A stretch of DNA of 25,436 nucleotides. Source: a virus. Its lineage: Duplodnaviria; Heunggongvirae; Uroviricota; Caudoviricetes. Positions 1 through 25,436 of the stretch are shown one piece after another (positions within the stretch are counted from its first letter, which is position 1; every line of letters begins with the position of its first letter). Under the pieces are notes generated by a model. That model did no database searches. It was given only the letters and a program-made list of their open reading frames with translations, and was not told where the DNA came from. The DNA is taken from the IMG/VR virus record IMGVR_UViG_2850784384_000006. One strand, 5' to 3'. A program made the position numbers and the translations under genes.

Positions 1-276
1 TTACCGACTGCGGCCTGAGTTTTTTAAGTGACGTAAAATCGTGTTGAGGCCAACGCCCATAATGCGGGCAGTTGCCCGGCATCCAACGCCATTCATGGCC
101 ATATCAATGATTTTCTGGTGCGTACCGGGTTGAGAAGCGGTGTAAGTGAACTGCAGTTGCCATGTTTTACGGCAGTGAGAGCAGAGATAGCGCTGATGTC
201 CGGCGGTGCTTTTGCCGTTACGCACCACCCCGTCAGTAGCTGAACAGGAGGGACAGCTGATAGAAACAGAAGCCAC
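1..276 (-). CDS. insA: IS1 InsA (transposition regulator / N-terminal part of InsAB' transposase)
   Basis: 91-aa [46 protein letters not shown]... matches the IS1 InsA sequence as I remember it, with zinc-finger-like CxxC...CxxC; stop codon at 1..3. Confidence 0.9.
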
Positions 277-331
277 TGGAGCACCTCAAAAACACCATCA
301 TACACTAAATCAGTAAGTTGGCAGCATCACC
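1..331 (-). mobile_element. IS1 insertion sequence, partial (cut by window edge); insA-proximal terminal inverted repeat ends at 331
   Basis: Reverse complement of 299..331 reads GGTGATGCTGCCAACTTACTGATTTAGTGTATGA, which I recognise as the IS1 terminal inverted repeat; complete insA lies inside; insB would lie beyond position 1. Confidence 0.85.
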
Positions 332-346
332 GAAATGGACTATGAC
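318..346 (+). promoter_or_regulatory. Candidate hybrid promoter: -35-like TTGGCA inside the IS1 end (318..323), 17-bp spacer, weak -10-like TATGAC (341..346), reading into the acyltransferase gene
   Basis: Hexamers and spacing read directly from sequence; the -10 is a poor match to TATAAT, so this is speculative. Confidence 0.2.
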
Positions 347-393
347 ATAAAGATCTGATATTTTCCTCACAAAAACTTAGGGATTTTATTTTA

Positions 394-1395
394 ATGCATA
401 AGAGCAACTGCTTTGATACGGCAAGGCTTGTGGCAGCTATGATGGTTCTAATCAGTCACCACTACGCGCTCTCTGGACAACTCGAGCCGTATATATTCGG
501 CTTTGAAAGTGCTGGCGGCATTGCTGTTATCATATTCTTTTCCATATCAGGATACCTGATTTCAAAATCAGCAATCAGAAGTGATTCCTTTATTGATTTC
601 ATGGCTAAAAGAGCAAGAAGAATATTCCCTGCTCTTGTCCCTTGCTCTGTACTGACGTATTTTTTATTTGGGTGGATGCTTAACAACTTCAGTACAGAAT
701 ATTTTAGTCATGACATTATCCGGAAGACCATAAGCTCTATTTTAATGAGTCAGGCTCCAGATGCCGACATTACATCACATTTAATTCATCCCGGTATTAA
801 CGGCAGCTTGTGGACACTACCACTGGAGTTTATGTGTTACATAATAACTGGAGTGGCTGTTGCTCTACTAAAGAGCGGAAAAACGTTCATAGTTATACTA
901 TTGATTTTTGTTTCACTTTCATTAGTTGAAAGTGTATCTGAGAACAAGGATGTAATATTCTCCATTCCAGTATGGCTGTATCCTTTGCGGGGGATGGCTT
1001 TCTTTTTTGGTGCCACTATGGCGATGTATGAGAAATCTTGGAATGTAAGTAATGTGAAAATTTCCGTGATTTCTTTGCTTGCTATGTACGCATACGCGAG
1101 CTATGGCAAAGGCATTGACTATACAATGGCTTGCTATATTCTGGTTTCTTTCTCAACAATAGCTATATGCACATCCTTTGGAGATCCACTGGTTAAGGGT
1201 AGGTTTGATTACTCTTATGGTGTATACATTTATGCATTCCCCGTTCAGCAGGTTATTATAAATACATTGCATATTGGCTTTTACCCTTCGATGTTGTTAA
1301 GTGCCATTGTCGTTCTTTTCTTGGCTCATCTTTCTTGGAATCTAATTGAAAAAAGATTCCTTACACGAAGCTCGCCAAAATTATCCCTGAATTGA
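394..1395 (+). CDS. oac: Acyltransferase family 3 integral membrane protein, O-antigen O-acetyltransferase-like (serotype-converting Oac type)
   Basis: 333-aa ORF, hydrophobic throughout (multi-TM); N-terminal R...HH motif (RLVAAMMVLISHH) and FFSISGYLIS segment typical of acyltransferase-3; length and N-terminus resemble phage Oac as I recall it. Markedly AT-rich versus flanking phage genes. Symbol is tentative. Confidence 0.7.
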   Translation: MHKSNCFDTARLVAAMMVLISHHYALSGQLEPYIFGFESAGGIAVIIFFSISGYLISKSAIRSDSFIDFMAKRARRIFPALVPCSVLTYFLFGWMLNNFSTEYFSHDIIRKTISSILMSQAPDADITSHLIHPGINGSLWTLPLEFMCYIITGVAVALLKSGKTFIVILLIFVSLSLVESVSENKDVIFSIPVWLYPLRGMAFFFGATMAMYEKSWNVSNVKISVISLLAMYAYASYGKGIDYTMACYILVSFSTIAICTSFGDPLVKGRFDYSYGVYIYAFPVQQVIINTLHIGFYPSMLLSAIVVLFLAHLSWNLIEKRFLTRSSPKLSLN

Positions 1396-1403
1396 ATAAT
1401 AAA

Positions 1404-1419
1404 GGGGCCATCGAGCCCC
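1404..1419. terminator. Candidate weak bidirectional terminator hairpin (GGGGC-CATCGA-GCCCC) 9 bp after the acyltransferase stop
   Basis: 5-bp GC stem with 6-nt loop; followed by TGAATAAAT on plus and TTTATTATT on minus strand; no clean U-tract. Confidence 0.3.
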
Positions 1420-1685
1420 TGAATAAATCAAAGCCAGATATAACACTGCCTGGCAGTGGACACCGTTCTGATGCCTCGTCCTGCAAGGACGAGCGAAGGT
1501 GGAGTTCTTTTCCACGCAGCTATTTAGTACAGTACTGAGTCATATTGTTTATGTATGAGTTAACTTCCGTAATATCAATTAAATAAAATAAGTTGAGGCC
1601 ATTGTAGAAGTGAGCATTATATCCAGGTTATCTGGACCTGTTGAAAAATGCGTATTATTCCAACAATTACCCTAGATTAACAAGT

Positions 1686-23164: not shown

Positions 23165-23430
23165 TCATGGTAGTGGATACGCCATATCTCTTTGCTAAAG
23201 ACCTAAGCCCATTACCTACACTCCCGCGCACATACTCGCGGCGAATGCAGATGACATCGCACTCTTTTAATTTCGCCATTCCGTTCTTTTCACCTGAACG
23301 GTCAGGGTATGAGTTTCTGCCTCGCCTTGACCTGTCACGATTATTGTCAGCGACAGTACCTATAATCAGATGGTCAGGATTCACGCATGATGGATTATCG
23401 CATTTATGCCTAACAACAAGGTCCTTGATG
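23115..23430 (-). pseudogene. HNH homing endonuclease gene, 5'-truncated by IS911-like insertion
   Basis: ORF contains HKCDNPSCVNPDHL (HNH His/Cys/Asn signature) followed by a basic AP2-like region; the first 8 codons of the track ORF 23115..23456, including its GTG start, are encoded by the IS end, so the native N-terminus is missing. Confidence 0.65.
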
Positions 23431-23502
23431 TGAAGTGGCACACTGAATTTGGCCACCTGAACAGAGGTGATATGCTCACCTCAGAACAACACAGGTGCTC
23501 CA

Positions 23503-23805
23503 ATGAAAAAAAGAAATTTTAGCGCAGAGTTTAAACGCGAATCCGCTCAACTGGTTGTTGACCAGAAATACACGGTGGCAGATGCCGCCAAAGCTATGGA
23601 TGTTGGCCTTTCCACAATGACAAGATGGGTCAAACAACTGCGTGATGAGCGTCAGGGCAAAACACCAAAAGCCTCCCCCATTACCCCGGAACAAATTGAA
23701 ATCCGTGAGCTCAGGAAAAAGCTACAACGCATTGAAATGGAGAATGAAATATTAAAAAAGGCTACCGCGCTCTTGATGTCAGACTCCCTGAACAGTTCTC
23801 GATAA
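23503..23805 (+). CDS. IS911-like OrfA, copy 2
   Basis: Identical translation to copy 1 OrfA. Confidence 0.85.
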
Positions 23806-23831
23806 TCGGGAAACTCAGAGCGCATTATCCT

Positions 23832-24671
23832 GTGGTCACACTCTGCCATGTGTTCGGGGTTCATCGCAGCAGCTACAGATACTGGAAAAACCGTCCTGAA
23901 AAACCAGACGGCAGACGGGCTGTATTACGCAGTCAGGTACTTGAGCTACATGGCATCAGCCACGGTTCGGCCGGAGCAAGAAGCATCGCCACAATGGCAA
24001 CCCGGAGAGGCTACCAGATGGGACGCTGGCTTGCTGGCAGGCTCATGAAAGAGCTGGGGCTGGTCAGCTGTCAGCAGCCGACTCACCGGTATAAACGTGG
24101 TGGTCATGAACATGTTGCTATCCCTAACTACCTTGAAAGGCAGTTCGCCGTGACCGAGCCAAATCAGGTGTGGTGCGGTGATGTGACCTATATCTGGACG
24201 GGTAAGCGCTGGGCGTACCTCGCCGTTGTTCTCGACCTGTTCGCAAGAAAACCAGTGGGCTGGGCCATGTCGTTCTCGCCGGACAGCAGGCTCACCATGA
24301 AAGCGCTGGAAATGGCATGGGAAACCCGTGGTAAGCCCGGCGGGGTGATGTTCCACAGCGATCAGGGCAGTCATTATACGAGCAGGCAGTTCCGGCAGTT
24401 ATTGTGGCGATACCAGATCAGACAGAGTATGAGCCGGCGCGGAAACTGCTGGGATAACAGCCCAATGGAACGCTTCTTCAGGAGTCTGAAGAACGAATGG
24501 ATGCCGGTGGTGGGTTACGTAAGCTTCAGCGAGGCAGCTCACGCCATAACGGACTATATCGTTGGATATTACAGCGCACTAAGACCGCACGAATATAACG
24601 GTGGGTTACCCCCAAACGAATCGGAAAATCGATACTGGAAAAACTCTAACTCGGTGGCCAGTTTTTGTTGA
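23832..24671 (+). CDS. IS911-like OrfB, copy 2 (expressed by -1 frameshift as OrfAB)
   Basis: Identical translation to copy 1 OrfB; A AAA AAG heptamer present at about 23754..23760. Confidence 0.8.
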
Positions 24672-24679
24672 CCACTTCA

Positions 24680-25436
24680 AATCCGAAGAAAATTGCCGGA
24701 CAAACCGCTCGCTGACATATCAACGAAAGAGGTGGCAGCAATGCTAAACACCTACGTAGCAGAAGGTAAAGCGGCTTCCGCAAAATTAATCAGGTCAACC
24801 CTTGTTGACGTTTTTCGTGAGGCAATAGCCGAGGGGCATGTAGCAACGAATCCGGTAACAGCAACCCGCACAGCAAAGTCAGAAGTAAGGCGCTCAAGGC
24901 TGACAGCTAATGAGTATGTCGCGATTTACCATGCAGCCGAACCTCTCCCAATCTGGCTGAGGCTAGCAATGGATTTGGCTGTCGTTACAGGGCAGAGAGT
25001 CGGCGATTTGTGCAGAATGAAATGGTCAGACATAAACGACAACCATCTTCACATTGAACAGAGCAAAACAGGGGCTAAGCTCGCCATTCCGCTGACGCTA
25101 ACGATTGACGCGCTCAATATCTCATTGGCTGATACACTACAGAAATGCAGGGAGGCCAGCAGCAGTGAAACTATAATCGCATCAAAGCATCACGATCCGC
25201 TTTCCCCGAAAACAGTATCGAAGTATTTTACAAAGGCGAGAAATGCATCAGGACTCTCATTTGATGGAGACCCGCCAACATTCCATGAACTGCGTAGCCT
25301 GTCGGCGAGGCTATACCGTAATCAGATTGGCGATAAGTTTGCTCAACGTCTTCTCGGACATAAATCAGATTCAATGGCGGCGCGGTATAGGGACAGCCGT
25401 GGACGGGAATGGGACAAAATTGAAATCGACAAATGA
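24680..25436 (+). pseudogene. int: Lambda-type tyrosine integrase, 5'-truncated by IS911-like element (C-terminal about 250 aa retained)
   Basis: Frame open from the IS boundary to TGA at 25434..25436; translation ...RLAMDLAVVTGQRVGDLCRMKWSDI...TFHELRSLSARLY...LLGHKSDSMAARYRDSRGREWDKIEIDK closely resembles the lambda Int catalytic domain (R, H-x-x-R, H, Y). No authentic start: the track ORF begins at a TTG 13 nt after the IS end. Confidence 0.85.

Follow-up and report, generated by a model that had tools for sequence, protein, structure and literature searches.

A defective oac1b prophage of Shigella flexneri serotype 1b: its lesions, its integration site and the question of its retained late genes

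Introduction

Why does a bacterial chromosome hold a nearly complete set of phage packaging, head and tail genes beside a serotype-converting gene, while other parts of the phage are missing? This question is raised by a stretch of DNA of 25,436 nucleotides (IMG/VR record IMGVR_UViG_2850784384_000006; hereafter the window, at its full length) with the late genes of a contractile-tailed phage and oac1b, a gene encoding an O-antigen O-acetyltransferase. An initial annotation, made from the sequence alone, read it as a dead prophage whose host-modifying cargo had been kept, and considered co-option of its tail genes as a tailocin. The window is the published defective oac1b prophage of Shigella flexneri serotype 1b, and the initial annotation was a correct rediscovery of it. 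With a probability of about 0.92, we regard it as the immobilised remnant of a lambdoid temperate phage that carried oac1b as a moron, with the late genes as baggage.

Results

Identity of the locus

Chromosome CP034060.1 (assembly GCA_003855135.1) matches the first 11,395 bases of the window at 100% identity, and in further loci of this chromosome the gene order agrees with that of the window as far as its right end and beyond. The prophage was described by Sun et al. (2012; PMC3630932), who called the oac1b element of S. flexneri serotype 1b strain 1997020 (GenBank JN377795) an "incomplete prophage". Its layout, obtained by polymerase chain reaction (PCR) and genome walking, was torR-torT-IS1-oac1b-tail-head-terminase-IS911-integrase-truncated ymcA (gfcD). 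The integrase was 99% identical to that of phage HK022, and no genes were present for recombination, immunity, replication or lysis. Induction failed in 20 serotype 1b strains, the cloned oac1b was functional, and the insertion position was termed unusual (PMC3630932).

The window shares these traits. As seen from its flanks in several genomes, torT-IS1-oac1b lies on one side and IS911-int-truncated ymcA/gfcD on the other. The oac variant encodes 333 amino acids (aa) and is ~88–89% identical to oac of phage Sf6, and neither Pfam searches of all open reading frames (ORFs) nor comparison with intact relatives revealed recombination, immunity, replication or lysis genes. Relative to the JN377795 prophage, CP034060.1 has an additional IS911 in a Dit-like baseplate gene and a 146-bp deletion in the genes of the spike and the sheath initiator. 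Moreover, whereas the 2012 paper did not find an att site, we found that attR occupies the canonical HK022 attB and that the int-side junction falls on a pseudo-core in gfcD. What is added to the 2012 paper is the fourth lesion, an explanation of the lesions by insertion sequences (IS), the position of the canonical att site and the proposed deletion at a pseudo-att. Transfer RNA and Rfam scans of the window gave no matches.

Loss of the early region

At the right end of the window, a fragment of an HNH endonuclease gene (23115..23430, minus strand; Pfam HNH_3, tblastn) encodes residues 62–165 of 165, codons 1–61 being lost. It is followed by an IS911 element, copy B (23431..24679, plus strand; delimited by its repeats and by reading of the junctions), and by an HK022-type int fragment with codons 107–357 (24680..25436, plus strand; Pfam Phage_integrase). 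Both truncations had been recognised in the initial annotation. Copy B connects HNH codon 62 straight to codon 107 of int. A target duplication is lacking (the flanks of copy B are ATG and AAT), as would be expected where a deletion was joined, and the HNH'-IS911-'int arrangement was found in the complete genomes sampled. The register of int was set by the full 357-aa copy in locus L002 (CP026871.1), of which 350 of the 357 residues are identical to HK022 Int. The fragment has lost codons 1–106, with the arm-binding domain and the start codon, and xis is also gone, so that the window holds neither a full Int nor Xis.

Both IS911 copies of the window have the 1.25-kb length, the terminal inverted repeats (TGAAGTGG...) and the orfA and orfB reading frames (HTH_Tnp_1 and rve ORFs) of this element. 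Two of the three lesions listed by the initial annotation are edges of IS911 copies, which it had missed, together with the IS1 at the left edge.

In intact relatives, the interval from terS/HNH to xis-int contains Rha, Rz, endolysin, holin, Q, the nin region, replication genes, cII, cro, cI and recombination genes; in the Escherichia coli prophage LR-71-1 this early block spans at least 14 kb. Between terS and int, a functional lambdoid phage has its lysis cassette, the Q gene and the modules for replication and immunity, and none of these was found in any frame of the window (Pfam of all ORFs), in agreement with the initial annotation, which had seen no immunity, replication or lysis module. 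Behind the int fragment, the source chromosome and the other finished chromosomes sampled continue with gfcD', gfcE, etp, etk and appA. Hence, the early and lysis region is truly deleted and does not merely lie beyond the window; the adjoining early or lysis region that would have refuted the initial annotation is not there. The whole-locus comparison with intact relatives that the initial annotation had proposed (here LR-71-1 and vB_EcoM-606R2) exposed this missing block, and the comparison with LR-71-1 defined four lesions.

The end points of the deletion vary. In L002, window position 2992, which lies within the DUF2612 gene, is linked by IS911 to xis codon 30. This strain has lost window positions 2993–23430 (20 kb) beside the IS911, and retains oac, xis codons 30–72 and the full int. 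The simplest history would start from an ancestor with HNH'-IS911-xis'-int, followed by one-sided IS911-adjacent deletions in an order that we infer; these deletions would have run rightward in the main lineage and leftward in L002.

A simple consensus scan of positions 22400–25436 found no promoter-like site upstream of the late operon. Because the early block is missing as well, the late operon is probably orphaned transcriptionally.

Integration site and host deletion

The attachment sites lie outside the window. The attR site is intact and occupies the canonical HK022 attB in the torS-torT intergenic region (L002 8850–9170, ~300–750 bp left of window position 1). On the torT side, the K-12 intergenic sequence continues up to ...CAACCTTTTTCACCTAAAG and then changes to the HK022 P arm (GATGACAAAAT...), at a point ~300 bp left of IS1. 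The P arm at attR includes arm-type sites and a hairpin, which we take to be a terminator like lambda sib/tI. Thus, attR is canonical: it consists of the B' half of K-12 and the P arm of HK022. The int-side junction is non-canonical. The location of attB between torS and torT is confirmed by PMC6814406 and by the flank of an Stx1a prophage.

The int-side junction (L002 15095–15125, ~70 bp right of window position 25436; K-12 locus L024 7004–7022) joins the P' arm and the core CAACTTA-TTCACCT to GAAGTATAAC... of gfcD. At this spot, K-12 gfcD reads CAACTTA-CCGCCCT-GAAGTAT. If the core layout of HK022 (C' site, overlap and B site) is assumed, this pseudo-core (CAACTTACCGCCCTGAAGT) comprises a perfect C'-type site, a B site that is partial, and an overlap that agrees in three of its seven bases, each of them exactly in register. 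The pattern CAACTTANNNNCCTNAAGT has a single occurrence in the 22-kb region of K-12, and 100 shuffled sequences contained none. The switch from phage to gfcD sequence falls inside a CCT that both have at the edge of the overlap; judging from lambda Int, this is presumably where the integrase cuts.

On balance, we favour the explanation that Int recombined attL with a pseudo-attB in gfcD and thereby deleted ~9.2 kb of host DNA. The deleted interval is equivalent to positions 7023–16190 of K-12 locus L024 and contains the 5' part of gfcD, gfcCBA, cspH, cspG, ymcE, gnsA, yccM and torS. If the event was Int-mediated, the prophage's own integrase removed, among others, group 4 capsule (gfc) genes and the gene of the TorS sensor.

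An identical int-gfcD junction is present in two chicken E. coli genomes, NZ_CP148466.1 (L029 46400–46700, and L030) and NZ_CP148474.1, with flanks that are 1.6–2.3% diverged. There, the junction adjoins a prophage with a full early region. The shared junction points to a recurrent or old site-specific event. The other end of the chicken E. coli prophage abuts dacD, which suggests a rearrangement between prophages.

The oac1b cassette

The oac1b gene (394..1395, plus strand; Pfam Acyl_transf_3) is intact and encodes 333 aa, and its nucleotide identity to Sf6 oac is 88.3–88.5%. The identical Oac1b protein is on record in 1687 blocks of the sequence collection, where block counts are not genome counts and serve as rough indicators only. 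A putative promoter (336..364, plus strand), with a -35 hexamer TGGACT at 336–341 and a -10 hexamer TATTTT at 359–364, aligns to the annotation of Sf6 (AF547987), and a hairpin terminator follows the gene (1403..1420). The homology to Sf6 extends over window positions ~330–1440 and covers the annotated putative promoter and terminator of Sf6; homology to the myovirus flank, at the tail fibre assembly gene, begins near 1425.

At the left edge, the window starts inside an IS1 (1..331, minus strand; Pfam Zn_ribbon_InsA and HTH_Tnp_IS1), whose left inverted repeat (IRL) ends at 331. An ORF at 1–276 (minus strand), tried as a possible truncated int, turned out to be insA of this IS1 (Pfam). The full IS1 copy is 768 bp long and is flanked by a 9-bp target duplication GAAATGGAC (window 332–340; L002 9162–9170), which marks it as a simple insertion. 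The IS1 ends 4 bp upstream of the putative -35 hexamer of oac, and because of the target duplication the putative promoter stays whole.

To the left of IS1, upstream of oac1b, L002 retains 74 bp from the 3' end of an integrase gene of the Sf6/P22 type (9070–9143). This remnant beside oac1b shows that an Sf6-like phage was the source of the cassette, which brought a piece of the int gene of this phage along with it. A search of 50,697 phage records and 5,426 complete E. coli genomes yielded no oac1b of >90% identity, only Sf6-type oac of ~88%.

Baseplate lesions particular to this strain

Lesions were identified by comparing every late protein of the intact E. coli LR-71-1 prophage with the window by tblastn. 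The late proteins align over their full length without stops, except for four lesions: the Dit-like baseplate gene, the spike and sheath initiator genes, HNH and int. The initial annotation had counted "at least three lesions". Its three are real, and it overlooked the one in the spike and sheath initiator genes. Consequently, the set of virion genes is incomplete, with the Dit-like gene split and spike and sheath initiator fused; the other 24 late genes are full length.

The split tail gene of the initial annotation is this Dit-like gene. Its N-terminal fragment (9360..9829, minus strand; Pfam Dit_like, tblastn) encodes aa 1–158 and its C-terminal fragment (7975..8110, minus strand; tblastn) aa 157–200. 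Between them lies IS911 copy A (8111..9359, plus strand), which is 99.9% identical to the IS911 of Sf6 and is flanked by a 3-bp target duplication GCA (8108–8110 and 9360–9362). Other strains have the empty site. This is a simple recent transposition that split the gene near residue 158. The ORF created by the insertion is on record only in CP034060.1, in a collection where draft assemblies would break at this point.

The second baseplate lesion is a 146-bp deletion between 8-bp repeats GGCGACAC, with its joint at 5024–5031 (blastn against L003, L005 and L007–L009; tblastn). Because of it, ~19 codons are missing from the end of the spike gene and 28 from the start of the sheath initiator gene. 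The resulting in-frame fusion of 315 aa (4760..5707, minus strand; PF18352 at aa 31–127, phrog_120 at aa 227–313) keeps aa ~1–227 of the 246 of the spike and aa 29–117 of the 117 of the sheath initiator.

IS911 copies A and B are in direct orientation and differ by a single base. Together they bracket 14 kb (15.3 kb from start to start), from the tape measure gene through the terminase genes. Homologous recombination between the two copies would delete most of the head and tail genes; the 20-kb loss beside an IS911 in L002 is of a comparable kind.

Variation among strains

The sampled strains differ by only ~0.03–0.1%. In 17 other loci, nearly all late genes are intact, the exceptions being the L002 deletion and a 1-bp deletion in the DUF4236 gene of an old draft assembly. 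We counted 12 single nucleotide polymorphism (SNP) sites among the sampled loci: eight nonsynonymous and two synonymous in structural genes, and two synonymous in oac. The oac-bearing loci had been retrieved by their exact Oac1b protein, which biases the comparison of oac SNPs. A comparison of the ratio of nonsynonymous to synonymous substitution rates (dN/dS) between cargo and structural genes, as proposed in the initial annotation, was rejected as uninformative, given so few sites and the biased oac sample. Identical capsid and portal proteins were found in 2085 and 2068 collection blocks, respectively, versus 1687 for Oac1b.

Hence, the interpretation of the initial annotation stands in part. 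The window is a dead prophage that keeps a conversion gene, but domestication with differential decay of structure and cargo is not visible, as the late genes of the 17 other loci are almost all intact. From these sequences, selective retention of the cargo is not demonstrable. The youth of the locus suffices to explain the intact late genes, which have the look of neutral baggage acquired not long ago. That oac1b is under selection is plausible, given that the gene is serotype-defining and that L002 kept oac while losing 20 kb.

Gene content of the late operon

As the initial annotation had proposed, the window holds a near-complete packaging, head and tail module of a contractile-tailed phage (Pfam and PHROG; tblastn against LR-71-1). 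The late operon is complete and syntenic with that of the intact relative and lies on the minus strand at 1686–23113. Its order starts with the terminase small subunit (TerS), terminase large subunit (TerL), portal, MuF-like protein, DUF2213, cement, major capsid, STY1053, DUF4054, tail completion protein and adaptor. It continues with the neck terminator, sheath, tube, chaperone and DUF6889, the tape measure with SLT domain, the Dit-like protein, plug, hub and a 114-aa protein. It ends with DUF4236 (on the opposite strand), spike, sheath initiator, baseplate J, DUF2612, fibre and fibre assembly.

The genes of TerS (22559–23113) and TerL (20934–22556) are full length (Pfam and PHROG; phrog_2 and Terminase_2 cover the terminase block). 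The TerS ORF comprises 201 aa, and gene callers use a later start that gives 184 aa. Residue 21 of TerL (22494–22496) is tryptophan in the window and arginine in the E. coli relatives and four other S. flexneri loci. This R21W change is derived, nonsynonymous and confined to the sublineage of the window; the tryptophan variant occurs in 93 collection blocks. The genes for portal, MuF-like minor head protein, the protease-like DUF2213 protein, cement and major capsid (16147..20934) and those for the STY1053-family protein of 73 aa, DUF4054, tail completion protein, head-tail adaptor and neck terminator (14051..16104) are likewise full length (Pfam and PHROG). The 73-aa ORF (15883–16104) was considered as a truncation, since the protein has 129 aa in one E. 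coli relative, and was rejected because it has the same size in vB_EcoM-606R2 and LR-71-1. Further candidate lesions in MuF, TerS and fibre assembly were also rejected, as the longer ORFs are extensions to upstream start codons.

Then follow the full-length tail sheath (12902–14047; Pfam DUF3383) and tail tube (12451–12891; Pfam KPP10_Orf10), the tail assembly chaperone (12022–12447; Pfam Phage_TAC_15) and DUF6889 (11834–12025; in one block with the chaperone, 11834..12447), and the full-length tape measure with its SLT domain (9829..11844; Pfam SLT, tblastn). The tape measure (70% aa identity) and the sheath (80%) are far more diverged from LR-71-1 than their neighbours (95–100%), which points to mosaic exchange inside the late operon.

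Downstream of the Dit-like gene lie the baseplate plug (7668..7973; Pfam Pam3_gp18) and the baseplate hub (6601..7665; phrog_196, with a weak Pfam match to E217_GP41). Positions 5723–6600, between hub and spike, form a moron islet that is also present in E. coli relatives. It consists of two genes that, with oac1b, are the accessory genes described as intact in the initial annotation, and all three are. The first encodes the 114-aa protein (6244..6588, minus strand; phrog_3443), with a translated Sec-type signal peptide (...APAFA/DQQ); it is 70% identical to its counterpart in LR-71-1, while its neighbours are 96–100% identical. The second encodes the DUF4236 protein of 96 aa (5930..6220; Pfam), which lies on the plus strand, opposite to the late genes, has the same position in E. 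coli relatives, and is followed by a terminator at 6226–6244 (terminator scan).

The remaining genes, all on the minus strand, encode the baseplate J-like protein (3560..4759; Pfam; 399 of 399 aa aligned), the DUF2612 baseplate wedge protein (2883..3563; Pfam; 226 of 226 aa aligned), the tail fibre (2092..2883; Pfam Gp53-like_C) and the tail fibre assembly protein (1686..2135; Pfam Caudo_TAP), which is intact in all loci. The N-terminal 146 aa of the tail fibre are 90% identical to the relative and its C-terminus is mosaic.

Discussion

The window is best explained as an immobilised remnant of a lambdoid temperate phage. This phage would have combined a contractile tail of the E217/Pam3 type with an HK022-type integration module and the serotype-converting oac1b. 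Judged by its gene content, a remnant that lacks Q, a late promoter, lysis and replication genes, Xis and a complete Int would be unable to excise, replicate, transcribe its late operon or lyse the cell. The oac1b gene would remain expressed from its own putative promoter and O-acetylate the O-antigen, which yields the group 6 antigen of serotype 1b, and among all parts it alone is likely to be subject to selection. The late genes would be recent neutral baggage of which the decay is just starting, and loss of the head and tail block through the direct IS911 pair is the likely next step.

Several points weigh against this explanation. We infer the role of IS911 in the large deletion only from the absent target duplication of copy B and the different end points in L002, and the presumed silence of the late operon derives from a simple consensus scan and from the absence of Q and of the late-promoter region. 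Furthermore, the oac-bearing loci are biased by their exact-sequence choice, and the sampled loci offer only 12 SNP sites. Finally, every late gene is intact in most strains, which fits recency and would also fit some retained use.

Alternatively, the remnant could be a recombination reservoir that donates late genes and oac1b to superinfecting lambdoid phages and could thus remobilise oac1b. The late module is 92–94% identical to that of circulating E. coli and Citrobacter prophages and phages, and the mosaic boundaries at the oac cassette, the fibre C-terminus, the tape measure and the sheath attest to past exchange in the lineage. However, a remobilised copy was not seen, as no oac1b of >90% identity occurred in the phage and E. 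coli genomes searched, and donation of genes is a potential rather than a selected function. We therefore consider this explanation very improbable.

Slightly lower still do we rate the idea that head, tail and terminase genes are kept by selection as a domesticated module for tailocin-like or gene transfer agent (GTA)-like particles, under control of the host or a helper phage. All 28 late genes are intact in most sampled strains, identical capsid and portal proteins occur in ~2070–2085 blocks, at least as many as the 1687 of Oac1b, and a layout of late genes only is superficially GTA-like. Yet, strain differences of 0.03–0.1% mean that intactness needs no selection, and the 8:2 ratio of nonsynonymous to synonymous SNPs in structural genes is as expected without constraint, albeit from tiny counts. 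Moreover, a lysis cassette, Q, a late promoter and any other regulator are lacking, the window has two broken baseplate genes, L002 has lost 20 kb, and induction of 20 strains yielded no phage (PMC3630932). Head and packaging genes are present, unlike in tailocins. The suggested tailocin co-option fails on these head genes, on the lack of a lysis cassette, a regulator and a promoter-like site upstream of the late operon, and on the two broken baseplate genes.

There is also scant probability that the unbroken 22-kb terminase-head-tail block of many serotype 1b strains is a particle module, trans-activated by the host or by a co-resident lambdoid prophage, in which case the copy in the window would be a recently inactivated example. 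Nothing positive supports a GTA-like reading of the strains with an unbroken module.

Least credible of all is an artefact, with early and lysis genes just outside the window or an IS911 mis-join: the window does start inside IS1 and end exactly at the int stop codon, so that its flanks are invisible from within, and IS911 is a multicopy repeat, but in finished chromosomes HNH'-IS911-'int continues into gfcD', gfcE, etp and etk, PCR and genome walking had independently led to the same layout in 2012 (PMC3630932), and on the other side attR lies 300 bp past IS1.

Since this locus is what defines serotype 1b of S. flexneri (group 6 antigen), it is relevant to serotyping and to O-antigen vaccine design. 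That the prophage is incomplete and non-inducible has been known since 2012. With the immobilised remnant as the preferred explanation, single strains display the next steps of decay: an IS911 insertion, a repeat-mediated deletion and a 20-kb loss adjacent to IS911.

Comparison with known systems

The window resembles R-type tailocins and GTAs in having a structural cluster without replication or immunity genes. Tailocins are tail-only, with their own lysis cassette and regulator and an intact baseplate. In contrast, the window has capsid, portal and terminase genes, lacks lysis and regulator genes and has two broken baseplate genes. A GTA is a host-regulated head-tail-terminase cluster that purifying selection conserves vertically over long times and that packages DNA at random. 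The likeness of the window to GTAs is one of gene content only, and the diversity between strains is too low for a test of selection. Compared with both R-type tailocins and GTAs, it has no lysis genes, dedicated regulators or evidence of long-term vertical conservation.

Sf6 shares the oac cassette at 88% identity, including the putative promoter, the terminator and the 74-bp int remnant upstream, and it also carries IS911. However, Sf6 is a P22-like short-tailed phage, none of its other genes is found in the window, and it integrates at argW (PMC3630932).

HK022 provides the closest match to the integration module, with Int 98% identical at the aa level, the int-xis-attP region 96% identical at the nucleotide level, the P arm kept at attR, and attB at torS-torT. 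It differs in being a siphovirus, whereas the window has an int without codons 1–106, no xis and an int-side junction that is a hybrid with gfcD.

The late genes have their counterparts in the LR-71-1 prophage (NZ_AP027599), vB_EcoM-606R2 (ON470579) and the Citrobacter phage Omnitron (CP115737), which are syntenic with the window from TerS to fibre assembly at 92–94% nucleotide identity. All three keep HNH, Rha, Rz, endolysin, holin, Q, the nin region, replication and immunity. They have other att sites and other cargo, and none has oac1b; LR-71-1 lies at the dacD/sbcB locus and carries an unrelated acyltransferase. LR-71-1 shares both the DUF4236 and the 114-aa moron with the window.

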